Program-made: the position numbers and the translations under genes
Notes under the pieces: generated by a model
What the model was told of the DNA's origin: nothing
The model's input: only the letters and a program-made list of their open reading frames with translations
Databases searched by the model: none
Assembly: GCA_035221665.1 (NCBI GenBank)
Contig: CM069147.1
Coordinates: 44,020,001-44,084,000 of the forward strand
Origin: Okamejei kenojei
Lineage: Eukaryota
Reading direction: 5' to 3'
Length of the DNA stretch: 64,000 nt
Shown: in pieces, positions 14,331 through 41,074 of the stretch
Numbering within the stretch: position 1 is the stretch's first letter
How the letters are laid out: every line of letters begins with the position of its first letter

Positions 14331-14385
14331 AATGTGATTACAAACATACCTAAATGTCATTAGATCCCAACAATTCCAAGCCTCT

Positions 14386-14577
14386 GAAGATAGACACAAA
14401 AAGCTGGAGTAACTCCGCGGGACAGGCAGGATCTCTGGAGAGAATGAATGGATGATGTCTTAACCCGAAACGTCACCCATTCCTTCTCTCCACAGATGAT
14501 GCCTGTCCGGCTGAGTTACTTCAACATTTTGTGTTTATCTTCGGTGTAAACCTGCATCTGCAGTTCCTTCCTACACT
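14386..14577. mobile_element. Fold-back Penelope pLTR insertion with 13-bp TSD
   Basis: Left arm (gaagatagacac...) is inverted relative to the right arm (...cagttccttcctacac); attccaagcctct at 14373-14385 and 14578-14590. Confidence 0.9.
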
Positions 14578-14828
14578 ATTCCAAGCCTCTAATTATTTAT
14601 ACAGGGTTCTTTTTCTATTCACTCACGTGAATATTGCTGGGCAGGCAACATGTATTACTTGAACTTTACTGCCCTTATGTTAATTGCAGGAGCCTGCCAC
14701 GCTGATGTGTGTTGCAGTAATGCAGGAGAATGGTTGATATATTTCCCTGAAGTTTAGCAGCACTTTTATTTTCATTATCAAAGATACCTCCTCAATACCT
14801 GCTCACCTAAACTTGGTATCTATATGCA

Positions 14829-15280
14829 GTGTACGAAGGAACTGCAGATGCTGGTTTATGCCAAAACTAGATACTGTGCTGGAGTAACTCAACAGGTCAG
14901 GCAGCATCACTGGAGAAGTTGCCTCCTACTTCGCTTGGGCAGCTTACAGCCCAGCGGTATGAACACTGATTTCTCTAATTTAAAGTAACCTCTACATTAC
15001 CTCTCCCCCACCCGAGTCTTTCTACTAGTTCCACAGTTCATCTTTTAGTATCCCTTCAATATCATCTCTTCCCCAGTCCACAATGAGCCATTATGGGCTC
15101 CACCCATTCTTGGTCATCTGTTGCTGGTCCTTATTTGTTCTGACCCTTTCCTACCTCCATTTCCCACCCACCCCCTCTACTTTCAATCTGAAGAAGGGTT
15201 CCGACCTGAACCATCACCCATCCTTTTTCTCTCGAGATGCTGCCAGACCTGTTGAGTTACTCCAGCACTTTGTGTCTATC
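14829..15280 (+). mobile_element. 5'-truncated Penelope with inverted 5' pLTR and 17-bp TSD
   Basis: Inverted tailed arm 14829-14917, then LLLRLGSLQPSGMNTDFSNLK* (GIY-YIG C-terminus), 3' region and pLTR; atctatatgcagtgtac at 14818-14834 and 15281-15297. Confidence 0.9.
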
Positions 15281-15741
15281 ATCTATATGCAGTGTACTAG
15301 TATCCACCTCAGAGCTCATTAGATCTTCTACTTTTGTGGGCCTGGCAAACTTGCAATTAGATTCCTCTTCAAAGTTCTTTGCCTAGACTGAAATGCTCGA
15401 CACATGACAATGATCCTTGATCTAACTGACTAGTTACTGTCACTAGTATTTAACTGTGAAGCTTCCCTGGTTTATTTTATTTATTCACTCTTCAATCCAT
15501 GCTAATATATTATACCACAAGCCCATGCCCAATCCAGTGAGGTTAAGTCTAACCTCATGGTGGGATTTTGTGAACTGATTTCTAAGATGGAAATTTGAAC
15601 ACCATAATCTGCTTCCCGACATCCATTGGCTTTATCCCATTGAAACTGCAAGTTGCAATCTAAATAAACATTCACTAATATGTCCCACATGAGTCCCCTT
15701 CCATCACAACATGATTTTGCTCAATCGTGTTATGTTTTTTC

Positions 15742-16110
15742 ATTTTTCAGTTTCAGGATACGGAGTGCATGCTTTGCATGCTTTCCAGTTAAATCAGATA
15801 ACACCATACAATAATGCATTCAAGCCAAACTCAAGTGCATAGGTAGAGCGAACGGAAAGATACAGAGTGCAGAATATATGTCTCACCATTGTAGTATGAC
15901 AGTTCCTGAGACAACATCCAATGTCAATAGTGAGGTAGGTTGGAAAATTGGGCTGTACCCTAACTCATGGAAGAACCATTCACAAGCCCGCTAACAGAGG
16001 GAAGAACGTATTCCTGACTCTGTTGGTGCATGCTTTCAAGCTTCTGTATCTTCTGTTCGACAGGAGCGGGAAGAAGAAGGAATGACCAGAGTGGGAAAGG
16101 TCTTTGATAG
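15742..16110 (-). mobile_element. Rex1/Babar 3' fragment
   Basis: Minus strand IKDLSHSGHSFF..LLSNRRYRSLKACTNRVRNTFF-like coding plus Rex1-type 3'UTR. Confidence 0.75.
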
Positions 16111-17100
16111 CGGATAACTCTTGAGATACTACTACCCAATGTAGGAAACGGGTGGATGAAAAGGATCTGAGTTAGTAGGAATGGTTCCCTGTGTATTAGA
16201 GATAAATAGCAATATTTAATTTACATGCCTTGTGGAGTTTATATGGGTTTTGTAAAATAAAGAATGGAGAGGAGGTATAAACTGAGCTCTTTATAGGACA
16301 CTAGATTGATCCTTCCAGGATCAAGTTGAATACTGCAGTCTCTGTAATTTTTCTTTTTTCAGTAAAATCATGCCTGAATTGCACATAATAAGAAAACGAA
16401 CAATGCTGTGTTTGTGGCTCCCACTGTTTTCTCTCAAAGTCTCTCTGATTGCTCTGTTTCTAAGATCAGAAATGGCACAGTGGGCAGTCAGCCATGTAGA
16501 CGGCCACTCTTGTCATCAGTTTTTGGGTCCCTGTTTCTCACACTATTTCTGAGAGGCTCACGGATGGCTTGCAAGAACTGAGTCCTTAATCATTTGTCGT
16601 ACATGGTGTTTCAATCACTTTGAAAGCATAGTTGGTTGATGTACCCTGTATGATTTGTAGACAAGAACATGTTCAAATGGTGACAAGAAGCCATTTCCTT
16701 GGCCTGTTGCTTTAATAAGCAAAACTGAATCTCCTGGTTCACTGGTGGGGAGAGAGTTAAGAGATGTGAATTGAAGATAGACATCCAAATACAAATTATA
16801 TTGCAGTTTATCTCCAATAAAGTACCACAGGAATTTTGCAATGGATTTATAGAGAAACTGCATGAGATTAAATTGTGTCAAATCTAGTTTTAGTTGTTTA
16901 AATCCCTGGATTTAGTTAAATATTAACAAAATTGTTATTATTATTATTAAGCCTTATCAAATATAGGATGAAAAATGATCACATTTTTTGAGGTAACTAA
17001 TATTTTTCCATACATCGCTAGCCAATTACCATAGTTTCTTATTCAGTAATGTTACCTTTTCCATAATGTGAAGAAATAGAAATATAATTGAGTTATCTCC

Positions 17101-17172
17101 AGGGTCCTGAGTCCAGAGGAAGGGTCTCAACTCAAAATGTCGATTAACATTTCCCTCCGCAGATGCTGCCTG
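17101..17172 (+). mobile_element. Degenerate Penelope pLTR piece abutting the minus-strand Penelope ORF
   Basis: gaggaagggtctcaactcaaaatgtc...cagatgctgcctg. Confidence 0.6.
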
Positions 17173-17842
17173 GGGGGGTAGGCTGGGAAGAAGAAAGGAA
17201 GAGGCAGAGACAGTAGCTTGTGGGAGAGCTGGGAAGGAGAGGGGAAGGAGGGAGAAAGCAAGGACTACCTGAAATTGGAGAACTCAATGTTCATACCGCT
17301 GGAGTGTAAACTACCCAAGCAAAATATGAGGTGCTGCTCCTCCAATTTATGGTGGGATTCACTCTGGCCATGGAGGAGGCCCAGGACAGAAAGATTTGAT
17401 TCGGAATGGGAAGGGGAGTTGAAGTGCTGAGCCAACGGGAGATCAGGTTGGTTAATGCGAACTGAGCGGAGGTGTTGGGCGAAGCGATCGCCAAGCCTGC
17501 GCTTGGTCTCACTGATGTTGAGCAGTTGACACCTAGGAGGATGCAATAGATGAGGTTGGAGGAGGTACAGGTGAACCTCTGCCTCACCTGGAAAGACTGT
17601 TTGGGTCCTTGGATGGAGTCAAGGGGGGAGGTAAAGAGACAGGTGTAGCATTTCCTGTGGTTGCACGGGAAAGTACCAGGGAGTGGTTTGGGTGGGAAGG
17701 GATGAATTGATCAGGGAGTTACGCAGGGAGCGGTCCCTGCAGAAAGCCGAAAGGGGAGGAGATGGGAAGATGTGGCCAGTAGTGGGATCCCGATGGAGGT
17801 GGCGAAGATGTCGGAGGATTATCTGTTGTATGTGATGGCTGA
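17173..17842 (-). mobile_element. Penelope-like retroelement fragment: linker and GIY-YIG endonuclease pseudo-ORF
   Basis: Overlapping frames give IQQIILRHLRHLHRDPTTGHIFPSPPLSAFCRDRSLRNSL, RQRFTCTSSNLIYCI, and ETKRRLGDRFAQHLRSV...HFNSPSHS...EEQHLIFCLGSLHSSGMNIEFSNFR*; frameshifted. Confidence 0.9.
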
Positions 17843-17857
17843 AATAAAATGCATTAT

Positions 17858-18085
17858 AAAGACACAAAAAGCTTGGAGTAATTAAGCGGGTCAGACAGCA
17901 TCTGTGGAGAAAAGGAATCAGTGACGTCTTGGGTCGAGACCCTTCATCAAAGTTCTGAAGAAAGGTCTTGACCCAAAATGTCACCTATTCCTTTTCTCCA
18001 GAGATTCTGTCTGACCCGCTGAGTTTTCCTCCAGCTTTTAATGTCTATCTTCGGTGTAAACCATCAGCTGCAGTTCCATCCAACA
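17858..18085. mobile_element. Fold-back Penelope pLTR insertion with both hammerhead-core regions at the centre
   Basis: ...gggtcgagacccttcatcaaag|ttctgaagaaaggtcttgacccaaaatgtcacc...; arms are reverse complements, and only the right arm has the tail. Confidence 0.85.
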
Positions 18086-18202
18086 TAACTAAAATGTCTT
18101 GTTTGGTCATTGCATCTATGCTGCTTATGAAGGCTTGCCCTGCAGAAATTGCCTGCTGTGTTACTAAAATTGCAACAGTTTAAAAGTACCTTACCTCCTC
18201 AT

Positions 18203-18409
18203 GTTGAAGAAGGAACTGCAGATGCGGGAAAATCGAAGGTAGACAAAAGTGCTGGAGAAACTCAGCAGGTGAGGCAGCATCTATGGAGCGAAGGAAATAG
18301 GCAACATTTCGGGCCTTAAGAAGGGTTTCGGCCCGAAACAGTGCCGATTTCCTTCGCTCCATAGATGCTACCTCACCCGCTGAGTTTCTCCAGCACTTTT
18401 GTCTACCTT
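18203..18409. mobile_element. Fold-back pLTR insertion of a second Penelope subfamily with ~16-bp TSD
   Basis: Arms aaggtagacaaaagtgctggagaaactcagc... / ...gctgagtttctccagcacttttgtctacctt; taccttacctcctcat at 18187-18202 and 18404-18419. Confidence 0.9.
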
Positions 18410-19369
18410 ACCTCCTCATAAAGCTCTTTAAAATGTTCGGAGATCATCTCCATTAAATTCCATTTGGTGACAGAGGTTCCCAAACAAAATAATTAAGCAA
18501 AGAGTAGATATGTTGACAGCTGTTTAAATATTTAAATGAGAAAAGTTTCAGAAGTTGGGCAAGCTACCATGAATGTTCATAATTTTGGAACAACAGTTCC
18601 AGATGTTGTTTCAGAGGTTATAGGATGAGAAAGGTCGAATGCAAAGGATGGCAAGGTGTGGGACGGAGAGCAATTATGGTGAACCATGTAAAAGATACGG
18701 GATGGTGTTAGAGTCCGTCATGGTGGAGGGAAATTTCCTATTCAATATATGACCTGGGATATTAAGCCAAGTAGGATCATTGGAATGTGATTGGGGAAAA
18801 AAAGAGTGGTTTTGCAATTAACTGTTTGGTTTGAGTATTGTGCAGTAAGAAAATAAAATGAGATGGGAGCAGTTTGTAAAAATGAAGTGACATGAGTAAT
18901 TCAGATTGAAGAATCATTAAAAGATAGGAAAGTGTGTAAAAATAGTTCAGAAACTGAGTGATTCAGCCAGAATTATTTAAAATATACTGACCTTTGAACA
19001 ATATTAGGAAACTTGAAACTTGAAATGTTTCTTTCCTTCAAACCCTTGCCTTGAAAATAGGCATGTTGGGAATTGGTGAAGGAAATTATATCTTGCACTG
19101 AGCCGCTGCATGTATCCTACATCTGGATTTGTCCCATGCTCAGATGCACCTGCTCCAGATGCAAAGGGTCCAACGTGCTTGCCACTGATGAGATACGATA
19201 GGAAACAGGACTTCCAATAGGAGTCTGATGAAACCCCATCTCTGAACTGCTTCTCTAAACTCTGAGGTCCAGAAATGTGACACGACTTTGCTGGTCAGCA
19301 ATCATTGTAAATGCCTCTGCCATTAAATAACTAATACAAAGGGAGTATATGTAACTTATGGGGCTTTTC

Positions 19370-19700
19370 TAATTGCCTTGGAACAGAATGCCTTGCTGGA
19401 GGTAGTTAAGAATCTGCATTGTTAAAGGACTGGAGTCACATTTGGGTTGCAGCAGAAAAGGGGACAATTCCCTTCCTTAAAGATCATTAGTGAATCAAGT
19501 AGTGGACGTATAAAATGTGGGTGATAATGTCCAACATCAGTAAATGGAAGGTGATAAAATTTAATGAAGTAACATAACGGTCATAATTATGCTCTGAATG
19601 GAAGCAGACCAGGCAGTGTGGGTGATCAAAGAGACTTGAGGTTCACATGGTATTATAGGTAATACGTCGTCAGCTTGATAAGGTTGTCTAAACAAAACCC
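19370..19700 (+). mobile_element. Decayed LINE fragments (CR1-like)
   Basis: ttcccttccttaaagatcattagtgaatc resembles 36500-36560; tatgctctgaatggaagcagac...caaagagacttgagg resembles CR1 YxLNG...QRDLG. Confidence 0.45.
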
Positions 19701-21547
19701 CTTGTGGACTGGTTGAGCTGATAATAAGATTGGCAGCACACTTTTGGAGTGATCAAGTCTCCTGCACTTCGAATTTTCCATCCCTGGAGATTTACAACAT
19801 AATAGAGACCATTCGGCCCATTGTATCTGTGCTGTCTACTTATTCATGCATTTGGTTACTTCTACCCCGCACATAGCACTTGCAACATTTAAAAAAATAT
19901 TTTATCAACAATAAATATTGAAAACTATAATAAACTTGGAAAACTTTTAGAAATATTCTCCTCATCAGAGAGCTTCAAATTCCTTGGTAGGTTATATTTT
20001 TTTCTTACTTTTAACATTACTGAAATGAAAAGTTTGTTCGAATTTAGGAACAGCTGTAATACTGCCTATAATGTCTGATGTGTGATCCAACCTCATCTTG
20101 GCTAAGTGCCTTTAATAATTTGGGGATTTAAAACAAAATCTATCATTCTCAGATGTAAGGGTAATATTTTACCACACACCAATCACTAATAATAGAAGAG
20201 AATTCTTCAGTTTTATTTAAACAATGAAGATTATTTGAATGCTCAATTGTAATATTCATATTTTATTTTGTTCCAGTACATTCTTGACTGTTTTACTGTA
20301 CTTTTTTTTTTTACTGTTTCTACTTCCGATTTACTGATTTCAATCTTCCCAAATTCAAGTGGAACCAATCTTCTTTTATTTCATTCTTTTTCTTGCTCCA
20401 CCCTGTAACAATACCCTAAACCGACATCATTCTTTTCCACTGATCTAAGCCCCATCTTCCTCCAGCTGTACACCCCACCCATTGAAATGCAAGAACACAA
20501 CCACAGGACATCCACTTGCTATGTTACAACATATTGTGTGCTTTATAGCAGCCCTTTCATTGGAAACAGCACACTGTTTGATTCATAGGAGAGCACTTAG
20601 TTCTAGAAATATGCACAATGTCTAATTGGCACATAATCCTCCTGGTTACTACATTCATAGCGACTGCAGCATAAATTGTAGGATGAAGAATGGAAAAGCA
20701 ATGTACGATAATAAGATGCTAGTTTATACGGTCGGAAACAGTGTATTCGCTGCTTAGCCAGAAACTATGCTGACATGGTTGTATTCAGGTGCTTTGGAGC
20801 GACTGCAACGATTGATGTAGGAGTTAAATTGTACATCTGTCATAAAGCCATGGGTAGAAATAAAGAAAGTCATGAAAGCGTAGCTACTGCATTGCATCAC
20901 TTTTTATATTACACTGCGGTTCTGAAAAGGTGTACAAATAAATTTTGGCAAACTGTACGTTTTCACGAGTCTGCGGAATGCGCGCCTTGCAAGGCTCTCT
21001 GGGTGCGTGGATATATTAAATTTCATCTCTTTGTAAGTTAGTCCTATCTGTTTTTTGAATGCTTTTCATTTAAATTTAGAAAATAAATACCATGTGCGTG
21101 CAAATCTAGCCGCCAGGTTGTGCTTCTGCGAATATGGCAAACACAAGAAAGGGAGTAAGTTTCTCTGTAATCTGTAACTTTGTTGTGAAATATGTTTTGA
21201 ACGAGAGGTCATTATACAATAGCCTTTGAGTTCCTGGCACATGAAATAGGAGTGGAAAATAGAAGATTGTTATATGTTTTAAATGAAGTTCTTTCAAATA
21301 TGCAGTTATGAGAAGTTTGATGTCCCTTTGTGGGGATTTTCAAACGACTGATTCCATAATAATCCAATAAAGGAGATGGTGATGACAGTGATAAAATAGC
21401 CTATTAAAACTTTAACCTTAACTTGTGTAATTTTATTCACTGCCAAAATACCATTTAACAACAATAAAACTGTAATTGCACTCCACAATTTAAAAGAAAT
21501 GGAATGACTGGCATGTATCAAATTTGTATGGTTGGTCTTCACATTTC

Positions 21548-21584
21548 ATATTTGGTGTCCATTGTTATAATGGACACCAAATAT
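21548..21584. repeat. Perfect 16-bp inverted repeat with 5-nt spacer
   Basis: atatttggtgtccatt-gttat-aatggacaccaaatat. Confidence 0.9.
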
Positions 21585-21771
21585 TTATCTTGAACTGAAT
21601 TGTAAAAAATTAGTCCATAATCTTGGTGCACTTATGGACAATTAATGTATGGGAGTGGAACGACATGAAAGCAATAACAGTGGGAAAAAGCATTGTTTGT
21701 AGAATACTTGAACAGTACTCTCCACACATAGATCCTTACACACATACTGATAAATGTGTAAAGCATCGGAC

Positions 21772-22342
21772 TAGTTTAGTTTATTATTTAGTTACGTTTA
21801 TTATTGTCAAGTGTATTGAGGTACCGTGAAAAGCTTTGTTTTACATGCTATCCAAACTGATCAGAAGTACCATACATAACTGCAATCGTCAAACTCAAGC
21901 ACAATAGACAGAACAAAGGGGAAGCTACAGAGTGCTGTGGATGCAGTAGTTCTCAGTATTGTAGCACATTGTAGCCCATCAGTTCCATGGACACAGTCCA
22001 ATGCCTACAATGGTGTAGAGGCAACTTGAACAGTACCCGAGCTAATGCAAGGACTGTTCAGAAGCCTGATCGCAGAGTCCGAACAGAGTTCCTTAGTCCG
22101 ATGGTGCACTCGTTCAAGCTTCTGTACCTTCTGAGGAACGGCAGCACAGAGAAGAGGAATGACCGGGGTGGGACACCTCTTTAATTATGTTCCCTGCCTC
22201 TCTGAGGCAGTGTGAAGTGTAGATGAAATCAATGGAAGTCTGGTCTGTGTGATGGACTGGGCTACATGTACAGCTCTCTATAATTTCTTGCGGTCTTGAG
22301 GGCAGGGCTGTTCCCAAACCAAGCTGTGATGCAACCAGACTA
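21772..22342 (-). mobile_element. Rex1/Babar 3' fragment
   Basis: Minus strand GCITAWFGNS...IDFIYTSHCLREAGNIIKEVSHPGHSS; 3'UTR and (TAAAC)n-type tail. Confidence 0.85.
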
Positions 22343-22549
22343 TTGATCTGCCTGCAGTTTTCATCCTATGCTGAAGCTGGCCATTCAGCCCATCAGCCCC
22401 ATACTAGCTCTTGGTATGGCTATGCCATCAGTCCCATTCTTCCTTTTCCTGTCTCCTTTTCACTCTGTAACGTATCATTTCTCATGTTTAGTGGTCAACT
22501 CACCATTATTTTTTTTATTGCTGTTAATCTTCACTGAAGGGTATTTTAC

Positions 22550-22712
22550 AGTAATCCACCAGCAAATCTATTAGAATGTGGGAGGAAACTGGAGTACTCG
22601 AAGAAGCCAAAGAGGCCAAGGAGAGATTACATAAAATACATGCACAGCAGAGGTAAGGGTTGAACCCAGAACCCTGAACTGTGAGGCAGCAGCACTAACT
22701 GTGTTACCTGTG
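22550..22712 (-). mobile_element. Old HE1-like SINE fragment
   Basis: gaatgtgggaggaaactggag...gggttgaaccc...ctgtgaggcagcagc. Confidence 0.65.
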
Positions 22713-22972
22713 TTAATTGGTGCGACAGAGGTAATTGACAGATGTGAGCTGTAAACAATATATGGCTACAAATATGAATGGAAATTTATTTTTGAAAGAT
22801 GAACAATTATTCATGGCTAAGATGTAAAGTTTTCCAATAAATTATTTATTAATGACAAAATAATTGGTAAACTTTTCCACGTATTAGTAATATTCAGCAA
22901 CATTTTCATAATTTAATATTACACAGAATTAATCCTTAACTTATTCAATGTTTTCCAACCCATATCTCGTGA

Positions 22973-22980
<8 letters not shown>

Positions 22981-23007
<27 letters not shown>
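22981..23007. repeat. (TA)n microsatellite
   Basis: Direct inspection. Confidence 0.95.
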
Positions 23008-24379
23008 GTGATTCATCAGTGTGTATCTTGCAGTTAATTAGCGCATAGATACCATGGCTTGTGCAATACATTTGAATATTTTCATTGCTAATAATTTAAT
23101 TCTAGGAAGATTGTATCTAATCTGGCAGTGTATCACGGATTACATAAATACATGAAACAGTACTTACCAAAACATAAAATGCCTATTGAAAGTAAGTAAT
23201 GGTGTAGAACAATGGGATTACAAGGCCTAATTGTGGCAAGTTGATAAAGAATGTGTGGGAGAAATGAAACATGTAACAAACTAGATAAGTGTCTTATCCC
23301 TACAGCAAAGTAGCTGAACTGACCTGCACTTCATAAAGTTAGCACATTGGAATCTTTTGCATAGAAAATACCCTGTGGCATGAGAAATGTTTCCTTGTTA
23401 ACTGGTTGCGAATGTGCGAAGCAATGCAGAGGAAACAGATTGGTTGTCATTAGACAGGTGCTCCCTTAGACAGATGTACCCATTAATAAATAGCAGATCC
23501 AATAAGTATTCATCATATCTCGAAAAAGGACAGTGACTGAAACAATGAAAGAATACTTTTCTCATGGTGATTTCTTCATAAAGTTTGACTAATTTTATGT
23601 GCGCTTGTAAATATGTAGTCGATCTCTGCTGAGTTATTTTGTTGCGAGGAGTTTAAATGGTTTACTGTTTCTCTTTGACACAATTACGGTTGCACTACGT
23701 TGAGAACAATCAAGAGACAGAGGGCTGGGTTGGATTATACAAACGGCATATTTTGTGCGGCAGGTCAGAGAATAAAACATGCCACAGAATAAATATTTCA
23801 TTTGAGAAAGAGGCTTGATTGGAATGTTTGAAAGTATAAAATAAAAATGCCTGTGAAACCTTATATGTTCTGTGAATTAAACACTTTTAATCATTCATCT
23901 ACATTTACATTTTATTTCTTGAAAAGACTACACAAATATCTGACATAAAAGTGAAAATTGCTATGACCCAGCAATAAACCAGACAATTTTTGATTTCCTT
24001 CATATTTTCATTTGAAATAATAGCTTATTGATGGATTTCTTATTCATATCCATTTTTCTTATTTTCTTCTGCCAGATGTATAAACCATTATTAAAAATAA
24101 TCTAGTGTAATTATAACAACAGCATACAAAATTAAAATAATAATAAATATAAAGTAAAACTAGAATCCCTGTTCCATAGAGAAAAGATTTGTGTTTAATT
24201 CATTCTATTTTTTAGTTTAAATCGTTTTATTTTTTCTGAGACTAAATTGTATTGCCTCGCTTCTGTTGCACAGAATAATTGGCATTTTTATTTCATTCTG
24301 TTTACTATTTTACCTTAGATGTGGAAAGAAACCTATCCGATCTTGGTTCAGGGAAGCTGTACTTTTTATTAGTTCATTC

Positions 24380-25010
24380 TGTAATGCAGCAATGGCCCAC
24401 ACAGAATTAACCTTAATGTCGGGTTAAATCTGCAAATTTTGAAAGCAATATGTTTATATCATTTTCTTGGTGACTAACAGAGTTTTCTGACCACTGTCTT
24501 TAGTAAGGGAGTGGAATCAAGGCAGCAGGTGAGAGTGGAATGTATTTTCCTCAGCTCCTGGCTCTGTTAAGCTGCTAATCAAGGGCTGCTAGCAAGTGGT
24601 CCTGCTGGGTTTCAGAGTATGCCGTTAGCTGTTTTTAGCAAATCACAATCGCAGCGGTAGGCACGACTTTGGAATGGATTCACAAATTTTCTACTGGTTC
24701 AAAAAAAATTATCATTTTAGGCCAGGCTTCTTTCTAAAATTAATGATTGGGGCATGTGGAAAAGCTGTCAAATTGTGATAAAATGCTCAGTCAAAATTAC
24801 TTGTGAATTTTGTCTGGAATTGAAGGCAAAGTGAAATCATTCACTCTGCCTAGCCTTTTGTTTTGTGTGCATTTCTGTCAATTCTCTGAGGGAAAAATAT
24901 ATCCCCCATCTTTTATTGTAATCAAATTTATCTGGCATCTCTTGCCCCTATAAATTACTTATGCTACAATTGTCTGGCCACTCGTAGATTTTAGGGAGTT
25001 TATTTATTTA
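24380..25010. promoter_or_regulatory. Candidate conserved non-coding enhancer block
   Basis: Lies in a 5-kb stretch without recognisable repeats; complex sequence with clustered TAATC, TAATGATTG, CTGTCA and ATAAATTAC motifs. Confidence 0.4.
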
Positions 25011-28000: not shown

Positions 28001-28073
28001 TTTCCAACCCGATGGCTACAGTGGTGAAAAATAAAATACATTTAGTAAGATAATCTAAATATAGAAATGAAGC

Positions 28074-28179
28074 TGGACAGAAAAAGCTGGAGTAACTCAG
28101 TGGGTTAGGCCACTTCTAGAGAAAATGAATCTGTGACGTTTCAGCTCGAGGCCCTTCTTTAGACTCATGACTCATGATT
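28074..28179 (-). mobile_element. Minimal (106-bp) Penelope pLTR insertion with 14-bp TSD
   Basis: tatagaaatgaagc at 28060-28073 and 28180-28193 flanks gacagaaaaagctggagtaactcag...gtgacgtttcagctcgaggcccttctttagact. Confidence 0.9.
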
Positions 28180-28682: not shown

Positions 28683-28814
28683 GAAGACACAGAGAACTGT
28701 AGATGCTGGAATCTTGAACAAAACACAAGATGCTGGGAAGAACTCAGCCGATCAGGCAGCATTTGAGGAGTGAATTGATCGGCCACTTTTCAGGTCGGGT
28801 CCCTTCATCAGACT
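28683..28814 (-). mobile_element. Divergent Penelope pLTR unit
   Basis: gaactgtagatgctgg...ggcagcat...cccttcatcagactg; minus strand reads CTGATGA-agggacccgacct-GAAA. Confidence 0.7.
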
Positions 28815-30587: not shown

Positions 30588-30658
30588 CTTTCTCTCAGTT
30601 TCCCTTTCCCTCTCTTCTCGCTCTTTGACTCTCACTTTCTGCCACCTTTCTCCAGCAG
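30588..30658 (+). other. Candidate strong 3' splice acceptor (long polypyrimidine tract, CAGCAG)
   Basis: About 65 nt of pyrimidine-rich sequence with ctcac (branch-point-like) ending ...ctttctccagcag. Confidence 0.35.
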
Positions 30659-31910
30659 GACTCAATTATCCATCATCACAGAAGAAAGCACAGCAACTGA
30701 CAGAAAATCACAAATCCCTAGATTTTTGTCTTGCATTTATTGCTTGCTTATAACACAGCACGGATATTCCCCAAGAGAAGTGAACAAAACACAAATAACA
30801 AAATAAGCATAATGAGGCGATGCGCACACAAGACTTTGCTTTGTGAAGGGCCTGGTGAATAATTGGGAGAGGACTCTGTAGGAAAACGAGGGACCCACAG
30901 CCCTGGATATGTTAACAATTGTTTCTGGATGTAAAATAAAATCTGAGTGTTAAGTAGATTTAATTTTTCACTTGCTTTTCATGTCTGGTGTTAATTGCTT
31001 TCACTGTTTTGAATGTTTATAATTGCTTTATCCTCATGACAATAATTTTCTCAAACAGTAAAGTATCCAGTTATTTTAATCTTTGAGGAAAGTTACTTTG
31101 CACATTTGGTTTAGTGTTTTCAGCAAACTGACATGGTGTTCAATCATAAATGCTAAAATAGATAAGAATGTATATTCCCAACACTGCAAAAATAAAGGCT
31201 GAGAGCAGGTTTGATCAACAATGCAGACTTCATATAAGTAGGTGTTGCTGCATCTGTGCATGTATCCGAGACTCACTCCAATGCACAAATCCTAGAGTTG
31301 TGTCCCTCAGATAATATGTCAAATGTTAATAGTTGTGCCTGTCTGAATCTAAAGGCAAACTCTAACATCTTTCCAAACTCATTTACAGATGGCATCCACT
31401 CTGAAAATTATTATTTTTTCACCACTTCCTTCAGAGGTCGAAATTTACCTTTCTGTCAAATTCTGCAACACCAATTCTTCTCAATCACACATGTGCCAGG
31501 TTGCAATATGTTGAAATATTGTCTGCCTGAAGTAAGAGGTCCAATGAATTAAAACCAAATGTCCAAGAACAATGTTCAGAATGCATTGACAGACATAACT
31601 ATTGTTCATTTTAATCATGGGTCTTCTTGAAATCTTGTTTCTTTGACAGTTATTCCTATTTTTTTCTTCAACTGCGAATTGCTTCAAACAGTGCACTAAC
31701 TTAAAGCCAAGGTATCAGCAATCAGTCTTTCCCAATCTTGGGCCTCCATTGATTCAGATCTGCTCGTCTGAAGGAGCCAAGAAGCACTTGAAATAATGGG
31801 AACATTAACCTTCCTGGGAGAAAATGGTGCTTAAGCTTTGGAAGTTCTCCTGATCAGCTGGGTTGAAAAATTTAATTCAAAGAAAGGGTACCAACAAATC
31901 TACTGTTCAG

Positions 31911-32042
31911 TGTGTAGGAAGGAACTGTAGATGCTGGTTTACACCAAAGATAGACACAAAATGTTGGAGCAACTCAGCGGGACAGGCAGCATCTCTGGTT
32001 AGAAGGAATGGGTAATGTTTCAAGACCCTTCTTCAGACTGAC
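31911..32042 (-). mobile_element. Penelope pLTR unit with 9-bp TSD
   Basis: actgttcag at 31902-31910 and 32043-32051 flanks gtgtaggaaggaactg...cccttcttcagactg. Confidence 0.9.
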
Positions 32043-33399
32043 ACTGTTCAGCTCCATTGCAGTATCAAATGATCAGAGGTCCTTTGTGGCCATTTTTGTG
32101 CCATCCTTCTGCTAATTTAAGTGGGCTCCAGTAGCCAAGAACTGAGGACCAGCTTGCTGACGGTCAGAATTACCCAGTTATTTCAAACTGCTTCTCCATG
32201 ACTCTCAAGTCATTTGAATGAATGAATGAATGACTAAATGATTAGTCATTTGAGTAACTAATCAGCATGATAAGCAAGTTTGTTAATTTGGATTTAATCA
32301 AATGAGGTTCAGGAGTTAAAAATTGTTCCTCTCAATTGCTCTGCACAAGAACCAGTAGCAAAACAGCATACATAAATAATGTTCCTGAGGTTTCTGAAAG
32401 AATATCACACATGTAGGTATAAACAAGTGAGATTTCAGAAAAATATCTGAAAATGCCATTAACATCGAAGTCGCAAAAATAGTCATCTCTTTGTTGACGA
32501 TATATTTTTCCACAGATGCTCTTGCTAATGTTGTAAATATGACTTAAAACTATCTTAGTGAGCAATAACTTTGGTTCATTTTTCTAAAATAAATGTCTAA
32601 TGTTGAATCGAAAATTAAACTTGGAAAGTGGTTCAATGCCTCTGTTTTTTCTTTGAAAACACTTGCAAAGAGGACCAACGGAAAGGAGCGGCGGTAGATG
32701 CCTGTTCTTTGAACTTTTCTTTCTGAGACTGCACTGCAAATCTGGCCAGTATTAATCAGCGATCACATAAATCTTTAAGCTTTTGATAAAATGAAAAGAA
32801 AAATGAAAATTCTCAGAATGAAGCAAAAGACAACCTTGATCTTGAAGTGTGCCTTACTCACAAAGTCTGCACCTGACAAGGACACGCAATAACTGTCTGT
32901 AGCAATAATAGGCTTCACCATGGCGTTCCGAACATTCTGAAACTGTTTTGTCAGGGACAGTTTCGTGAATGAAATGTGAAACCATGAAACACTGAGTCCA
33001 TTTTCAAAGACCTCAGAGGACCCTTATTACTGTTGTGCATATGGCATTTATTATATTTTATTTTTCTTTCTTTAATTTAATGCCATGTGTAGATAGGGGT
33101 CAACTAAAGTGGTGCAAATGTGTTTACTTTTCTAAGGATCTATGTTTGTTCAGTATTAATTATTATAGATCAGTTATTCCAATTAGACCTGATTCATTTT
33201 AAGTTTACAATTGAGTTGAAATGACAGGCTAATCATGTTTTGCTAAGACAGGCTATACAAAGGCCAATAAAATATATAGTCTTAAGTTTACTAAATGAAT
33301 TGGAACTTTGAAATCAAGTTGTCCATGACTGAATCGTTCTACAAGACTTCAAGTCTTAGAGGCACAGTGAATGGCAATGAACTAATATACTTCAATGCA

Positions 33400-33980
33400 G
33401 GCTATAGAATGGGCAGAGAGGTGGCAGATGACATTTATTGCTGAGAAATGCAAGGTGTTACGTTTTGGTAGGAAAAGCACAAAGAGGCGATACAAACTGA
33501 AAGAAATAAATCCAATCTGGTGCAAAACCAACGAGATCTGGGGTGATATGTGCATAGTTCACTGAAGGTGGCAGAGCAGGTTGATAAAGTAGTTAGTAAA
33601 GCAAAGGGTGGCTGGGTTTGATGAAAAGTGAAGGAAAGTGCAAAAGTAATGAAGTCCTGAGCAAACTTTATAGTACTTTAGTTCAGCTAGAAATGGAACA
33701 TTGTGTCAGTTTTTGACTCCCTCACTTCACTTGGAAAGAAATGTAAAGATTTTGGACCCAATGTTTTTCCAGTGATGAGAGCCTTTGGTTGTGTGGATAC
33801 ACTGGACAATGCTTGGGACAGTGAGGTCATGAGGTGTTCTTACAAAAGGAGATACATAAACTCATCAAGGATATAGATCTGGTAGGCAGAGAGAAACTGT
33901 TTCTACTGGGAGGAAGATCAAGAATTGGGGGGCATTAAATGAAAGTGATTTGCAAATCAACCACAGTGGACATAAGGAAA
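33400..33980 (+). mobile_element. Decayed CR1 LINE RT/C-terminal fragment
   Basis: EWAERWQMTFIAEKCKVLRFGRK...QRDLGV...SLKVAEQVDKVVSKA. Confidence 0.85.
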
Positions 33981-34899
33981 CAAAATAGTATACAAATTAT
34001 TACCACTTTTTCCTACATTGGCACGAGTGCTCTTCAGAAAGACGGCACCTCACTGTTTGGGTAGACCTTTGAATGCTGTTGTATCAGGAACTGCTGTTCA
34101 CTTCACAGATTTGGAGTTTGTTGCATGTCTTACTGAACAGAAGACTCTGAGGATACTACATTGGTAATGAGTTTGGGATGTTGTTACTTGAGGAATGATA
34201 AAGATGTAACTTGAGGAAGGATAAAGGTGAATTATTTTGAGGGAGAAGAAAGCTGGGTTCTCCGGAGAGAGCAGTAAGAATAACAGGCAACAGGTGTAAT
34301 AGGTATGTTGATGATGTGTATATATATGTTTGAAAAGTCATAACCATTTGCTGTGTACTTAGAATAGATAGAGATATTCCTGAGAGGAAATGATATCCTT
34401 AAAGGATAGACCACAGGAGGACACAGAGAACAGAGCAATGAGGCCTTGTGGAGTGAAGGAGGCATTATATTACTCATAGTAAGGTTGGAGACATACAGAA
34501 AGCGAATGGGCTTCAAGCTGCCTGAGCCATGAATGAAGACTTTGATAAGAATATTGTATAAACTTTCAAAGGTACATTTCAATCCAGTAACTTTAGAAAC
34601 TTCTACAAGTTATACATTTGGTACGTGCAACTGGGGACCAGAAGAAAATAGTTACTATGTGTTCAGGTTATGAACTCTGCAACAAGGTGCTGAGGGACTA
34701 TGCAGCATGCATTAATATGTGGTCCGATTGGGGAGGGAATTCAGACCGAGCTCTTTGATGCAGAACGATGCTTGAGACAGCTTGGGCAATGGTCTTCATC
34801 ATAGAAATTATGTTTATGTATCCGAGGCAGAGTTGTGAGTGGGGGGGGACATTCAGGAATTAACTGTGCCTCGATCTCTGTCCACAGAGAGTATCTCCA

Positions 34900-35075
34900 G
34901 TGATACAGTCCGAGTGAAAAGCTTTTGTTGCGTGTTAGCCAGTCAGTGGAAAGACAATACATGATTACGATCAAGCCAGTTACAGTGTGTAGATCTGCGA
35001 TAAGGGATAATGTTTAGTGCAAGGTAAAGCCAGTAAAGTCCAATCAAAGATATTCCGAGGGTCACCAAGAGGGTA
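34900..35075 (-). mobile_element. Rex1-type 3'UTR fragment
   Basis: gagtgaaaagcttttgttgcgtg...tttagtgcaag, similar to 1848-1955 and 21826-21860. Confidence 0.7.
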
Positions 35076-35482
35076 AGGCTGTGACGACTCTGGTGGAAAG
35101 TAGCTAAGCAAGGTCATTCCACCGGCCAAGAAGCTGCAAGCTCACAGAACCGACACTGAAATAAATGATCTCTTCATAGTGGTGGATGGAGGGCTACAAT
35201 TGGGGTGTGATTATGAGATCATTGTTCAAATGAATGGTCATCCATTTAGGAAGGTGGCTTGCACATGTGTGGAATGCACATTGACAAGGATGTGACACAT
35301 AATGTTTAGAGTGACTCCTCCGGTTAATGGGGATACATGTGGAAATCCGACACATTCTGGGCGTAGTGTTATGACACTGTGGAAATGGCAGAAAAGCCAG
35401 ATTGTGGCCAGTTATACATGGGACTGGTGGTATCGGCATTGATCTGAAGTACTCTCCTCTTCGCATTCCCACACTGACCTTT

Positions 35483-35619
35483 GTGGGACAGCCCGAAGAA
35501 AGGTCTCAACCCGAAACGTCACCCATTCATTCTATCCAGAGATGCTGCCTGTCCCGCTCAGTTACTCTAGCATGTTCTGTCTATCTTCAGTGTAAACCAG
35601 CATCTGCAGTTCCTTCCTA
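35483..35619 (+). mobile_element. pLTR unit inserted into a Penelope endonuclease sequence (imperfect 15-bp TSD)
   Basis: cccacactgaccttt (35468-35482) vs cccatactgatcttt (35620-35634), 13/15 identical. Confidence 0.75.
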
Positions 35620-36045
35620 CCCATACTGATCTTTCTGTCCTGTGCCTCCTTCATTGCCAGAATGAGGCAAACTGTAGGAATAGCACCTCATATTCCAATG
35701 TCCCAACAAGATGAACATTGAATTCTCCAGTTTTAGGTAACCTCTAACAACCCCCCCCCCCTTCCCTTTATCCCACACAGCCCCCTTTTTATTGCCCCTC
35801 TCCCTTCTGCCTCACCTGGACTTGCACCTATTTCTCCCCTCCCCCTCCACCTATATTCCTTCCTCTGGGTTCACAATTTGTAACTCTTCAAACCTTCTGT
35901 CTTGCACCTTTGTATTCATCTCTGGCCTTTAGCCAACCATCTACCTTCCATAACCCCCACCCTCCCCTTGCCTATGTTCATCTATCATCAAACACACCTG
36001 TCCCTCCTCTTTTCCACCCTTCTCCCCCACCCTCCCTCCCTACAA

Positions 36046-36084
36046 TCAGTCTGAAGAAGGATCCCAACCCGAAACGTCACCTGT
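36046..36084 (+). ncRNA. Minimal type I hammerhead ribozyme motif in a Penelope pLTR (best-preserved copy)
   Basis: cagt-CTGAAGA-aggatcccaaccc-GAAAC-GTC-acctg: CUGANGA and GAAA boxes, palindromic ACGU stem III, GUC cleavage triplet; stem II partly decayed relative to the family consensus gggtctcgaccc. Confidence 0.7.
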
Positions 36085-38360
36085 CCATTTTCTCTGGGGA
36101 TACTGCCTGACCGTTGAGTTACTCCAGTACTTTGTTTCATTTTTTTGTAAAGCAGCATCTGCAATTCCTTGTTCCTAAATGTGAACCTACACTTGGATTT
36201 ACACTAGATTGCTGTACGGGTTAAGTCAGCTGCTGGGGATCCTGAGTTGTAAATGCAACCAAGATGATCATTTAATCGGCTGAGTTCAGGGGAAATGATT
36301 TTGCAGATTGTAATTCATAGATAGTTGAAGCAAAAAAAAAAAATGCTGTGTTTACACAATCTGAGATCATTTATTTGGGCTTTAGTATTGACCTCAATGA
36401 GATGAAGCCTGTCCAGGATAAGGTGTTTACCTGAGAACCTTCACTCATTTTTGGGAATGCTACAGAATTCCATTCATTCCCAGATGAGGTAAAGATGGCA
36501 GCTTTCTTCCCCTGAAGCCCATCAGAAAATCAGGTGGATTATTATGATAAACAGGGAGTTTCATGGTTACTTTTAATGAAATTAGGCTTTTATTTCTGAA
36601 TTATTCAATTACCAAAATTGAACTTGTATCTCCAAGCACCTTGAAACTAGAATTGCAACTTAACCCATACTGGCATCTCCGGAGATGAGGTATAGCCATT
36701 GGACACCATGGAGAGATCGTGACAGAGTGGAGTGACAGAATCTCTGCTATTTAGCACACAGTCAGTCTTTAGACTTAACGTGGGTCCTTGTTAGTCAAGC
36801 GCTTACTTTTATTAGAGTGGCTGAGTGCCAGCAGCTCAATTTGGAACAGCTGCCACAGCTAGGAAGATTCACCCCAGTGACAATCACCCTGGACTGTTGT
36901 TAAAACCCAACTGGTTTACATTGAAGTTGTTTTGATTCTCTAAATTTGAAACAATTAGAGATGTAAAATCCAGTCCAGTGGGAACATTGGTTGATTTGAG
37001 TCAGGCACCATATGGATAATATGGACAGGATACACTTTCAGCTGCTCACTACCAAGACAGGATCCCTGCAGCCCTGGAGTTTTGGTTGGAATAATGTCAT
37101 TGTGGAATTATCACAGTTCAAGATGGCACGGACATCTGACCACAAACAGTGGTCACCTGGGGCAGAATCTACATTGAAAATCATTGGGGGGATTTTGGGT
37201 CATAAACATTTGAATGAAGGATCAAATGTTTACTGGAAGCTCTATGGAATTTTCCCCTTCATAGTGGATATATACAATTCAGGCATTGAAAGATACTTAC
37301 TGATAAAGCTCTGAGAAGTAAACAAAATAATTTAGTTTATATTGAATTGCATTTTGTTATCTTAATATACTTTGTGAACAGACAATAATCTTGATTCAAT
37401 AATTGTGAACAAATTGTCCATAATTGTTTAAGTTCAAATATTTTCATATGAACACTAAAATAATATTGCTTGGATTTTTTTTTAGGGGAACCTTATTGAT
37501 CACTGCTGGATGATTACATTGTATAAATCATCAAGTCCCTAATGTAGCTCCAAGGAACAACAGGATTTGATAATTTCAAGGACTTGTTGAATGTTCATTA
37601 TACAATATTCCTGTTATACATCTCTCCAATTTGCATAAGTTCTCAATATTGCAGAAGCAATAACCTTGAACCAGATTCTGAGTTAAAGATCTGAAAACTT
37701 CAGAATACCAGGAGCAGTTATCATGACGTGTTTTTTTAAGCACTTGTCTTATCTCAGCCACACAAAGAGCCTTGTGTTTAATGCTGTGAGCTAACTTGTA
37801 ATCAACTTTTCATCTGTCTTAATGCCTTGTTTTATAGGCTGTCAAGCACATTGAAATCTTTTGTCTGATCAAGTAACCTTTTTAATGTCACGCATTATAG
37901 GATTCTTTTGTCATGACATGATGTGTCATAACAGACATTTTTAATGTGCTTTCCATGTAAAAAACGTTGCATATGATTATAAGAAGGTGTTAAAAAACGA
38001 ACCTAATGAAATCAGACTGGTAGTGTCCTCTGATAATCTACTTCACGTTTACATCTGTCCCTGCTTCCACTTCATTCCTTCTGCCCCCTGTTTTATTCCA
38101 AGGTCCATCACTCTTTCCCCAGCTTGTAGCAATGATTCTCACATGGAAATTCAATTAGTATCAAATAAAGTTCTCCAAACTTAATTGTGAGGTGTCACCG
38201 ACGACTGTACTTCCATAAAGCACAATTGTACTCCTGCCCAAATATTTTAAACCCTCAAGTCTTTTAACAAAGACACCTTCCTTGTCTGTAAATCCAGTTC
38301 TGCACTCAAAATACACAATGCGCAACTCGAACAACAGAGAAGGTTCTTTGGGAAAAAAAA

Positions 38361-38722
38361 GATGTAAAGTGCTGGAGTAACTCAACGGGCAGGCAGCAGT
38401 TCTGGAGAACATGGACGTTTTGGGTTGAACTGGTTGTAGATGGGGGGGGGGGGGGGGAGCTAGAAGCGAGGTGGGGACAGACAAAGCTTGCCGAGTGATA
38501 GGTGGATGTAGTGGAGGGGGGTTTGATTGGCTGATGGTTGTAAAAAATCCAGACATGAAAAGCCATGAACTGAGATGATGAGGAGAGAACTTGCGTTAAA
38601 TGTGAAGCCCGAGAAAGGGATATAAGTGGAATGGGAAGGGGTAAGTGGACGTGATTGTGGGAGAAGTGGGTGCGCAGGGAGGAGATGGGGGAAGAGTGTG
38701 TGGGTGTATGTTGGTTAGTTAC
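38361..38722 (-). mobile_element. Penelope 3' fragment
   Basis: pLTR (aagtgctggagtaactcaacggg...) followed by a purine-rich/poly-G region complementary to the 35750-36050 type sequence. Confidence 0.75.
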
Positions 38723-38865
38723 TCCTACTTGTTGCACCCAAGTGATCCCAAGAGCTGAACACAAGTATTCAAAAATTCACATTAATTCAACATTATCTTT
38801 CAAATGAATTTGGGACAGACTTCTATTTTTGGATTAATACTAATGCACTTGAAAGATGAGTGCAA

Positions 38866-39128
38866 TACAGTGGCACAGCAGTAGAGTTGCTGTCTTCTAA
38901 CTCCAGAGACCCTGATTTGATCCTGACTACAGGTACTGTCTGAATGGCGTTTGCATGTTCTCTCTGTGACCGCATGGATTTTCTCCAGGTACTCAGGATG
39001 CCTCCCAGACTCAAGTCACACAGGTTTGCAGGTTAATTGGTTTTGGTAGTGTGCAGAGTGATCACTGGTTGGCATGGACTCGGTGGGCCGAGGGGCGGTT
39101 TTTGTGCTGTATGTCCAAAGTCTAATGT
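38866..39128 (+). mobile_element. HE1-type SINE
   Basis: gtggcacagcagtagagttgctg...tttgatcctgactac...ggactcggtgggccgagggg. Confidence 0.85.
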
Positions 39129-39281
39129 CTGAAGTAAAGAAATGGAGGTTACTATGATTTAGAATGGATTTTTGAGATGGGAATTCATTTGTTTGGAGGG
39201 GGAATAAATATTTACAGAGTTTGGAAGTATCTGAGGTGCTTCGACCTGATGTGCTGCACTGAATGTGTTTTTAATGTACAA

Positions 39282-39408
39282 ACATCCAAAATAGGTGCAG
39301 GAGGAGGCCATTTGGCCCTTCGAGCCAGCAACGCCATTCATTGTGATCATGGCTGATCATCCACAATCAGTAACCCATGCCTGCCTTCTCTCCATACCCC
39401 TTGATTCC
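39282..39408 (-). mobile_element. CR1/HER1 3' tail fragment
   Basis: aaataggtgcaggaggaggccatttggcccttcgagccagc; reverse complement of the 43140-43245 type sequence. Confidence 0.8.
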
Positions 39409-39535
39409 ATGGGAGTTGTTTTTCTAATGGAATGATGCAATGAAACAAGTAAATGCTGAGATAACTGATTCTCCTTTTAACTTACTGCTATGCTTTATAA
39501 GTTGATAAGAAGGCATCTGCCAGTATCTCAACTGT

Positions 39536-39705
39536 AGACACAGGGAACTACAGATACTGGTTTACAAAAAGAGACAAAAGTGCTGGAATAACTCTGCAGG
39601 TCAGGCAGCATCTCTGGAGACCAATAATAGGTGACATTTGGTCGGTAGGAGAAAGCTGGAAGCGAGGTGGGGGAAGGACAACGCCCGGAAAAGTGTTAGG
39701 TGGAT
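39536..39705 (-). mobile_element. Penelope 3' fragment with internal deletion
   Basis: ggaactacagatactggtttacaaaaagagacaaaagtgctgg...gaagcgaggtgggg. Confidence 0.7.
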
Positions 39706-40328
39706 TCTTTCTTTCTTATTGGGCATTGAAGCAGTGGAGATTCATCCAAAACAAACAACATAATTGCATTGTTTTTTGAGTATGCCAGAACTCTGATTAT
39801 AAATCCAGAAGAAATCTATTTGTGTGCTTGGTCCCAGTTATTCTTCATTTCTCTGAATCACACGTCCATTTGTCTTTCATCTATATAGCTACACTCATAT
39901 ATTTTATCAATTATGATACTGCACACATGTCTATGGGACATGGAAGCTTCCTTACAAAGGATTGGACATCACATTTCATTGGGACTAGTAATGCTGGAAT
40001 ATTATCATTACATAATTTAAGCTTATAAAATATTTTTGAATATTTTGAAAAGGTGTAAGTTTTTCCATGGAAGTGAAATGACAGAAGCTGTCACCGCCCA
40101 CTGTAAGATGTAATGAGTAGATGATCGCTAAGGTGGCTTACATTGTGTCCACAGATTATTTGAACTTAGAGCTGTCCACTTCAGCTTTTTCATTACATTC
40201 TTTTCCCTTTACAATAGCAGTTTTAATAACTTTAATTATCAGTTTAATATCTTACTTATTACATTTCCAAACACCATTATGTTGCAATCAGGTTATCATC
40301 CACTGCAGAGTAATGCTGAATATTATAA

Positions 40329-40552
40329 GAAAAGAAGATAGACACAAAATGCTGGAGTAACTCAACGGGACAGGCAGCATCTCTGGAGAGAAGGAATGGA
40401 ACGTTTTGGCTCGAGACCCTGTGAAGAAGGGTCCCAACCCAAAACATCACCCATTACTTCTCTCCAGAGATGCTGCCAGTCATGCTGCTGAGTTACTCCA
40501 GCATTTTGTGTCTATTTTCGGATTAAACCAGCATCTGCAGTTCCTTCCTACT
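40329..40552. mobile_element. Fold-back Penelope pLTR insertion with 15-bp TSD
   Basis: Inverted arms around ~40420; tgctgaatattataa (40314-40328) vs tgctgaaaattataa (40553-40567). Confidence 0.9.
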
Positions 40553-41074
40553 TGCTGAAAATTATAATTATAAAATTAAATTGACGACAAGTGGTCTACA
40601 TATTTGTAAATAGTGTGAAAATCAGAAGCTTGTTATGTTTTTGACACTGAGAAAAAGAGCTGAACTGAATTCACCATGATCACAGGCGATTGATTTCCGA
40701 TGGATAAAACCCACCCATGTGCGCACTTGCAAGGAAAGCTTGAGTTTGTGCTTTACTTTTAAGTGGAAAGTGAGGAAGCTGAGCTTGATGCCACAGTTAT
40801 GTACTTGTAAAATTCTGAAGAAATACCAAACTTCCCTATTGTAATCTGCAAATTCCCAAAGTTCTGTATCCAAGAAGCGTTATTACACTGAGAACACATT
40901 TTAAATTTTGCAGTCTCTTAGCATTAACCCAAAACACAGGGGTTTATTTTTTTACATTTAAGGCACTTGATAGAGAAAATAGCTGTGTTCAGATTATTTA
41001 GAATATCACACTGAATGCCTCGCGTGGGACCTGTCAGTGTGTAGTAAATTGTTAGTGCGTAGCAAATAGGACAA

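Follow-up and report, generated by a model that had tools for sequence, protein, structure and literature searches.

In LINE-1 twin priming, both target nicks prime cDNA synthesis, and the product carries an inversion inside a single target site duplication (TSD), with the two pieces joined by microhomology; these pieces derive from separate RNA segments that for the most part do not overlap. The closest known layout to the one described here is that of endonuclease-positive Penelope-like elements, whose complex insertion units are depicted in PMC8557442, PMC3846280, and PMC2377424 Fig. 1. Published units of this type include a truncated copy in inverted orientation, and only one end bears a tail (PMC8557442 Fig. 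2 and PMC3846280); TSDs are 8 to 10 bp in the rotifer examples. For PAc, a Poseidon element from the green anole that has been examined in vitro, the accessible text of PMC11167929 describes AT-leaning targets nicked and extended on both strands, a predicted dimer, and a purified reverse transcriptase (RT) that starts internally, without homology to the target, at both edges of a tail lying downstream of a minimal hammerhead, whatever the RNA 3′ end. The start site does not differ between strands, and the same text reports no coupling of the two sites. Minimal type I hammerheads in Penelope-like repeats, as outlined in PMC4209133, can occur as paired motifs 100 to 700 bp apart on opposite strands. 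Later steps of Penelope-like integration are given as unproven in both PMC8557442 and PMC11167929.

The window analyzed here is a whole stretch of 64,000 nt of Okamejei kenojei DNA. At five window loci, two copies of the same terminal repeat stand head to head, as the sequence-only reading had stated, and in all five one arm carries a 34-nt tail and the other is tail-less. The tail has seven window matches at ≤3 mismatches, compared with none in 100 shuffles. The window holds 24 arm matches overall, 14 of which lie outside the five pairs. The features are as follows, with arm positions counted from the C in CTGAAGA, the hammerhead core.

14373..14385, no strand: left TSD of hairpin 1, 13 bp, exact
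14386..14456, minus strand: tail-less arm of hairpin 1, positions 27-96
14457..14576, plus strand: tailed arm of hairpin 1, positions 11-130, tail at ~14543-14576
14578..14590, no strand: right TSD of hairpin 1, exact match to the left copy
14818..14834, no strand: left TSD of insertion 2, 17 bp, its final 6 letters overlapping the tailed end (11 strict)
14829..14917, minus strand: tailed inverted arm of insertion 2, on the left side, from ~position 41 (truncation) to the terminus
14918..15184, plus strand: element body of insertion 2, comprising the final 21 ORF codons plus the 3′ UTR
15185..15280, plus strand: tail-less arm of insertion 2, preceded by ~270 nt of element body
15281..15297, no strand: right TSD of insertion 2
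17176..17841, minus strand: neighboring Penelope-like body fragment, endonuclease end, which served as query for longer relatives
17842..17851, no strand: candidate left TSD of hairpin 3, weak, 10 bp with one mismatch, partner at 18087-18096
17858..17949, minus strand: tail-less arm of hairpin 3, positions 2-90, with hammerhead-like core
17954..18085, plus strand: tailed arm of hairpin 3, positions 0-129
18187..18202, no strand: left TSD of hairpin 4, 16 bp, partner at 18404-18419, 6 letters common with the tail-less end
18203..18313, minus strand: tailed arm of hairpin 4, positions 18-129, subfamily B tail
18315..18409, plus strand: tail-less arm of hairpin 4, positions 1-94, with hammerhead-like core
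40314..40328, no strand: left TSD of hairpin 5, 15 bp with one mismatch
40329..40420, minus strand: tail-less arm of hairpin 5, positions 8-96, ~5 extra letters at the outer end
40422..40552, plus strand: tailed arm of hairpin 5, positions 2-128
40553..40567, no strand: right TSD of hairpin 5

Of the TSDs of 13, 17, ~16, and 15 bp noted earlier, the first and last stand, whereas the 17- and 16-bp figures include ~6 nt shared with the element. No TSD had been claimed for hairpin 3, and a weak duplication was found there. The description of these loci as ~200-bp ORF-less hairpins fits the larger sample considered below (median, 197 bp) but not insertion 2, which is 452 bp long and has a coding remnant whose peptide end is identical to that of endonuclease ORFs in longer relatives. 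Hairpin 4 belongs to a different subfamily (B) from the other window loci. Seven other window ORFs gave no Pfam match, so no host gene was identified among them.

Judged by sequence, the arms are dead, truncated ends of endonuclease-bearing, Neptune-like Penelope elements, which upholds the family proposed earlier. In longer relatives, RT motifs and a GIY-YIG–type C terminus lie directly upstream of the same repeat; this linkage was established for subfamily B and for the ORF end within insertion 2. ESM Atlas matches of 0.96 to 0.97 were obtained to PF26215 and PF01541 clusters, while the Pfam search returned a single weak RVT_1 match (E = 0.0024, below the cutoff) and none for the endonuclease fragments. 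Ahead of the endonuclease, P0001 and its relatives carry a Cys-x4-Cys-x2-Cys motif, and this cysteine linker is what makes the elements appear Neptune-like and sets them apart from the Poseidon element PAc. One copy, L172, consists of a 411-nt truncated copy, the tail, a full body, and a tail-less end, with repeats 89% identical, i.e., the partial-tandem pseudo-LTR structure of endonuclease-positive Penelope-like elements. The optional 30- to 40-nt tail and the inverted truncated copy inside one TSD are further hallmarks of this group found here. A putative minimal hammerhead motif has four window matches at ≤3 mismatches versus none in 100 shuffles; Rfam listed no hammerhead at E values up to 1. 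The motif has in common with the hammerheads of PMC4209133 the CUGANGA core, stem II, GAAAC-GUH, and almost no helix III.

To assess the tail rule outside the five loci, where 5 of 5 corresponds to p ~ 0.03 if half of the arms are tailed, we used 1.2 Mb of unselected genome sequence together with the window; it is this sample that settles the rule. An initial genome search had yielded 40 scored full-length matches, which were biased to the asymmetry of the query and were excluded from the counts. After removal of two local duplicates, 122 of 124 fold-back pairs were counted. Exactly one arm was tailed in 61 of 62 TSD-flanked fold-backs (p ~ 1e-17; chance expectation, about half), in 57 of 58 when the window was left out, in 33 of 34 with strict TSDs, and in all 13 with perfect TSDs of at least 13 bp. 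The one-tail count was stable across cutoffs of 105 to 118. Among all 122 fold-backs, 96 were one-tailed, 23 had no tail, and 3 had two. None of the 23 untailed fold-backs has a TSD; 10 of them were inspected by eye and included several with decayed tails or later insertions, which explains a part of the 23. The 3′ ends of 614 arm matches were bimodal, falling at approximately columns 90 to 104 and 128 to 133, with tail-less ends spread over ~10 nt. The rule was also kept by further TSD-flanked insertions in which an inverted piece sits at the far TSD: all 18 rows, representing 12 distinct insertions, conformed, with inverted pieces from a 15-nt stub to 2.4 kb. The one-tail observation is thus confirmed and extends beyond the window.

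Compared with the published complex insertion units, the commonest product here is a two-arm unit of ~200 bp without an ORF, TSDs are 11 to 16 bp, and the one-tail pattern is near absolute and counted. The asymmetry itself is not new, given the one-ended tails already shown in PMC8557442 Fig. 2 and in PMC3846280. Less familiar are pairing that is strictly one of each, a frequently greater 5′ extent of the tail-less arm, and the clustering of arm 5′ ends before the hammerhead core. A literature survey, mostly of openly available main texts, revealed no coupled twin-priming account of Penelope and no such hairpins in cartilaginous fish beyond the papers cited, though Fig. S2 of PMC11167929 may bear on novelty.

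The abundance of the hairpins (92 per 1.2 Mb, 2 to 18 per 100-kb block), their narrow median size, inverted ends, and TSDs could suggest a nonautonomous, MITE-like or SINE-like family that copies as a unit, one of two origins considered in the sequence-only reading. Centre junction pairs, however, were distinct in 94 of 96 one-tailed fold-backs, which refutes a self-copying hairpin family for the bulk of copies. The layout also occurs in four subfamilies, with the two arms of a hairpin agreeing in subfamily, at sizes from 103 bp to 2.4 kb, and persists unchanged up to arms of ~900 nt. A copying family is consequently highly improbable, and the other origin, de novo truncation, is favored.

The junctions bear on a different possibility as well, namely that a single cDNA, started at one of the nicks, doubles back or switches to itself as template, making the second arm a self-copy; self-priming was proposed from junction palindromes in PMC3846280. 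Arms within one hairpin shared private variants more often than expected (2.9% versus 1.4%, maximum 1.8%, in 300 within-family shuffles), although the same effect could arise if the arms underwent gene conversion with each other or if a single source copy gave rise to bursts. In addition, 30 of 96 junctions overlap by at least 1 nt, some of them falling on palindromes next to the core and within stem II. Yet the tail-less arm extended further 5′ in 55 of 96 fold-backs (by at least 10 nt in 44) and the tailed arm in 34 (Wilcoxon p = 0.003); in the subset with tight junctions the bias was weaker (33 versus 22, binomial p = 0.18). Since a copy cannot contain sequence absent from its template, a simple self-copy fold-back is excluded in this direction, and a tail-less template could not supply a tail in the other. 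Versions with later trimming of the first cDNA, which would be needed in most cases, are unlikely.

Instead, we favor, with a probability of ~0.7, a reading in which each hairpin likely formed anew when two staggered nicks primed RT at two internal RNA sites, the edges of the tail. The endonuclease would nick both target strands 11 to 16 bp apart, as the TSDs suggest and as double nicking of another element in vitro makes plausible. Each nick would then prime one cDNA, with synthesis beginning at the near edge of the ~34-nt tail for one and at the far edge for the other; the end positions were observed here, and for another element internal starts were seen in vitro. That the two edges are used one each is shown statistically in the present sample, and its cause would probably be one dimeric protein on one RNA. 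The tail-less end may often use 1- to 6-nt pairing with the target, seen as overlap. Both cDNAs end early, and arm 5′ ends cluster just 5′ of the hammerhead core, where the template's 5′ end would lie. Microhomology or short fillers would link the cDNA ends, and remaining gaps would be filled; the repair route is suggested by the junction letters. The two priming events at two nicks posited by the sequence-only reading are thereby supported, and single-arm TSD-flanked insertions, tailed and tail-less, are both common, suggesting that the second priming is optional. In contrast to LINE-1 products, the arms here are both copies of one shared stretch, begun at two fixed start sites. The mechanism is read from old copies, diverged by 7 to 15% from the family yardstick.

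A candidate junction at the hammerhead cleavage site was ruled out, as arms usually extend past this site; the arm ends, clustered 5′ of the core of the putative ribozyme, differ in this respect from the arrangement described in PMC4209133.

Two alternatives concern the origin of the tail edges. In "EN-mediated resolution," given as the likely origin of the tail in PMC8557442, the endonuclease cuts a DNA intermediate at both edges. The fly enzyme requires the tail for recognition, as cited in PMC11167929, and the 5′ end of 8 of 25 copies bearing the ORF start lies at or within the tail region, which could reflect cuts there. RT starts in vitro nevertheless coincide with the tail edges (PMC11167929), tail-less ends are spread over ~10 nt, and the TSD-template overlap at the tail-less end (mean 1.7 nt versus 0.36 nt in the null; 21 usable of 33 strict-TSD pairs, the other 12 being left out with an unaligned end) fits priming. 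This brief overlap contrasts with homology-free initiation by PAc; the TSD composition (66% AT versus 56%) is AT-leaning, as are PAc targets. We regard resolution by cutting as improbable.

The second alternative, put forward by the sequence-only reading, is that the templates, one per nick, are two RNA species that differ in their 3′ ends. Body-linked copies end with and without the tail in similar numbers, so that both read-through RNAs could exist. Free choice between them would, however, leave about half of the fold-backs one-tailed, far from the proportion counted. Sequence also continues beyond the tail into the ORF in L172 and 24 further copies, and 3′ extensions of the RNA left the product unchanged in vitro (PMC11167929). 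The internal starts at the tail edges described there favor two start sites on one kind of RNA, and differently ended templates are very doubtful.

For the paired starts we tentatively consider a more specific version, possible rather than probable. A Penelope dimer might hold one RNA with one tail edge at each nick; the upstream polymerase would lead, the downstream one would follow and displace its cDNA, and both would run off a defined RNA 5′ end before the hammerhead. Only 3 of 17 copies bearing the ORF start and a contiguous upstream repeat begin near −2, indicating that a fixed RNA 5′ end is not general. If the dimer version is true, the hairpins, ~200,000 genome-wide by extrapolation, would be a direct record of obligately paired, same-template twin priming. 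We know of no other retrotransposon class with this behavior. The counted one-of-each rule and the 5′ extents of both arms narrow the models of integration and offer a stringent test for the in vitro system that already exists.

Window positions 14100-18700, a range that leaves the 40329 locus outside, were compared with contigs from four other organisms. Flanking contigs enter the same insertions: those of one run reach 59 letters into hairpin 1 and those of another 62 letters into hairpin 4, so relatives share at least two of the insertions. The remaining contigs enter by 22 to 28 letters, under the 31-letter threshold. No empty site appeared among the joints listed for this range, which were dominated by repeat copies. 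When the L172 repeat-ORF junction was compared with contigs of three runs guessed as RNA, canonical intron ends at −2 were seen in 0 of 15 joints listed, in contigs of a kind that cannot show starts or editing.

For annotation, the hairpins resemble MITEs or microRNA precursors, and their proper label is Penelope ends. Rfam gave sub-threshold matches alone, as for any long hairpin, with microRNA matches far below gathering scores. If transcribed, hairpins in such numbers are predicted to be a large source of intramolecular dsRNA; the sequence-only reading saw in their stems possible ADAR or Dicer substrates. Two loci folded as RNA gave −104 and −145 kcal/mol, with z scores of −13.6 and −19.5.

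The five fold-back loci of the window (G000:C17:44020001–44084000; genome size, 2.76 Gb) are head-to-head pairs of one repeat in which a single arm carries the 34-nt tail, as the sequence-only reading had described. The size that it gave, ~200 bp without an ORF, does not hold for 14829–15280, which is 452 bp long and retains the final 21 ORF codons. The target site duplications (TSDs) of 17 and 16 bp that it reported are present, but in each of them six letters fit the element end too. The window repeats presumably resemble those of skates and rays. Positions near the repeat start are counted below from the C of its CTGAAGA hammerhead core.

Features of the window
14386, 14829, 17858, 18203, 40329: fold-back pairs (hairpins); 17858 has a weak 10-bp duplication at its flanks
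17100–17841, minus strand: Penelope-like endonuclease-end fragment adjoining the weak TSD of hairpin 17858; its terminal repeat piece (~17110–17175) is inverted relative to the body
4238, 5707, 12241, 28069, 28688, 31912, 35490, 36045, 39544, 41517, 44751, 50881: additional single arms of the hairpin repeat, tailed and tail-less; that at 28069 is tail-less, has a 14-bp TSD and starts near −2
4944–5026, 10195–10309, 45826–45940, 51905–51987, and at 6838, 38903, 41684, 50246: other dispersed families (D11, D14, D15), probably SINE or LINE ends

The body fragment at 17176–17841 served as the starting point for finding longer relatives, which have reverse transcriptase motifs, a cysteine linker and a GIY-YIG-type end, all upstream of the same terminal repeat. 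Their protein was grouped with PF26215 and PF01541 clusters in the ESM Atlas (0.96 to 0.97); Pfam alone gave weak support. The hairpin arms are Penelope-like ends, and the cysteine linker suggests that the elements are Neptune-like. The terminal repeat is common to four upstream bodies and begins with a minimal hammerhead motif, recognized by sequence, of the type described in PMC4209133. One longer copy, L172, is a partial tandem whose sequence continues past the tail into the ORF.

To sample the genome, twelve 100-kb blocks picked regardless of content were added to the window. The 3′ ends of the 614 arm matches formed two clear modes, and head-to-head neighbours were strongly enriched at short distances (112/190 lay no more than 20 nt apart versus 8/186 tail-to-tail). 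Pairs less than 60 nt apart were counted (n = 124; 122 after removal of two local duplicates): 96 were one-tailed, 23 had no tail and 3 were two-tailed. Among the 62 pairs with a TSD above threshold, 61 were one-tailed, so that the rule proposed for the window holds beyond it; since the threshold was only at the ~96th percentile of shuffled flanks, a few of these TSD calls may be false. The one-tailed share was 33/34 with strict TSDs and 13/13 with perfect TSDs of at least 13 bp. None of the 23 pairs without a tail had a TSD, and the sole TSD-flanked two-tailed pair has ~13 additional letters after one tail that resemble a tail-less terminus. Counts barely shifted with tail cut-offs at 3′-end columns 105 to 118 and degraded, as expected, once the cut-off fell within a mode (100 or 124). 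TSD candidates were found for 76 of the 326 other arms (null, 17); those starting with an inverted piece (18 rows, 12 distinct insertions) were all one-tailed, and single-arm insertions of both kinds were also present. A 2.4-kb fold-back in the C11 block at 30000001 (offsets 84696–87190; arms of ~860 and ~945 nt, 87% identical) likewise has one tailed arm and sits within a 16-bp TSD.

Each hairpin was likely made anew: centre junction pairs were distinct in 94 of the 96 one-tailed cases (30 overlaps, 9 blunt, 57 with fillers or unaligned letters), and sizes were 103 to 264 bp for these pairs, with arms of up to ~900 nt in longer units. The unique junctions argue against the self-propagating hairpin family that the sequence-only reading had entertained. 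Fillers of at least 9 nt matched the repeat in 16/28 cases (~7 expected).

According to PMC11167929, a Penelope-like protein, predicted to be a dimer, nicks and extends both target strands, and synthesis begins inside the RNA at two sites bounding the tail. Together with our counts, this makes priming at both tail edges the simplest account of the hairpins: each target nick would prime one cDNA, the two starting at different edges of the tail, after which the cDNAs would be joined at their ends. The two start-site choices are coupled, because independent choice predicts half one-tailed pairs; the cause of the coupling we infer. Plain self-copying is excluded for most hairpins, since the tail-less arm extends further 5′ than its tailed partner in 55 and the reverse holds in 34; this difference weakly fits a leading and a following polymerase on one RNA. 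Private variants were common to both arms at twice the shuffled rate, which fits a single source but gene conversion as well. Target-template overlap at the tail-less end averaged 1.7 nt versus 0.36 in the null. In 8 of 25 ORF-start-bearing copies (L193, L194, L195, L197, L198, L199, L202 and L206), the 5′ end lies at or within the tail region; therefore, tail edges mark long-cDNA stops too. In repeat subfamily B, an 11-nt box occurs on both sides of the tail, which forms the spacer between them (L172, minus read, ~1605–1665; L191–L215); the box follows the tail in 24/25 copies and precedes it in 18/25, and the paired boxes are possibly binding sites for a dimer.

The hairpin layout itself is already known for Penelope insertions, and the observation is real, general and well explained by it. 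In the literature covered, mainly open-access main texts, we found no paper counting the pairing or naming coupled twin priming. The strict one-of-each pairing and a 5′ cliff before the hammerhead core are modest, testable additions.

Arm 5′ ends cluster at −6 to +2 of the core (205/610 arms versus 28 in the next 18 upstream positions), alike in hairpins and TSD-flanked single arms. For non-hairpin arms, part of the pile-up could reflect alignments ending at a body absent from the four family reference sequences, an artefact to which tight junctions and TSD-flanked single arms are immune. The site reads YCAGT in 35/38 body-linked copies and is kept in all four subfamilies. Consensus forms of both the initiator and the splice acceptor are compatible with YCAGT. 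The pile-up may mark the start of an RNA, a splice acceptor or a point at which the polymerase stops. In the fly element, an intron has its end on the corresponding side of the ribozyme (PMC4209133), with the start site located further upstream (PMC2377424). Of 17 copies that have both the ORF start and a contiguous repeat, only 3 start near −2 and 7 start 60 to 485 nt upstream, which counts against a fixed RNA end. In the C30 block at 15000001 (offsets ~75079–75400 and 44426–44600), an internal piece of the repeat, ~66 nt long (positions 22–87), forms short tandem arrays.
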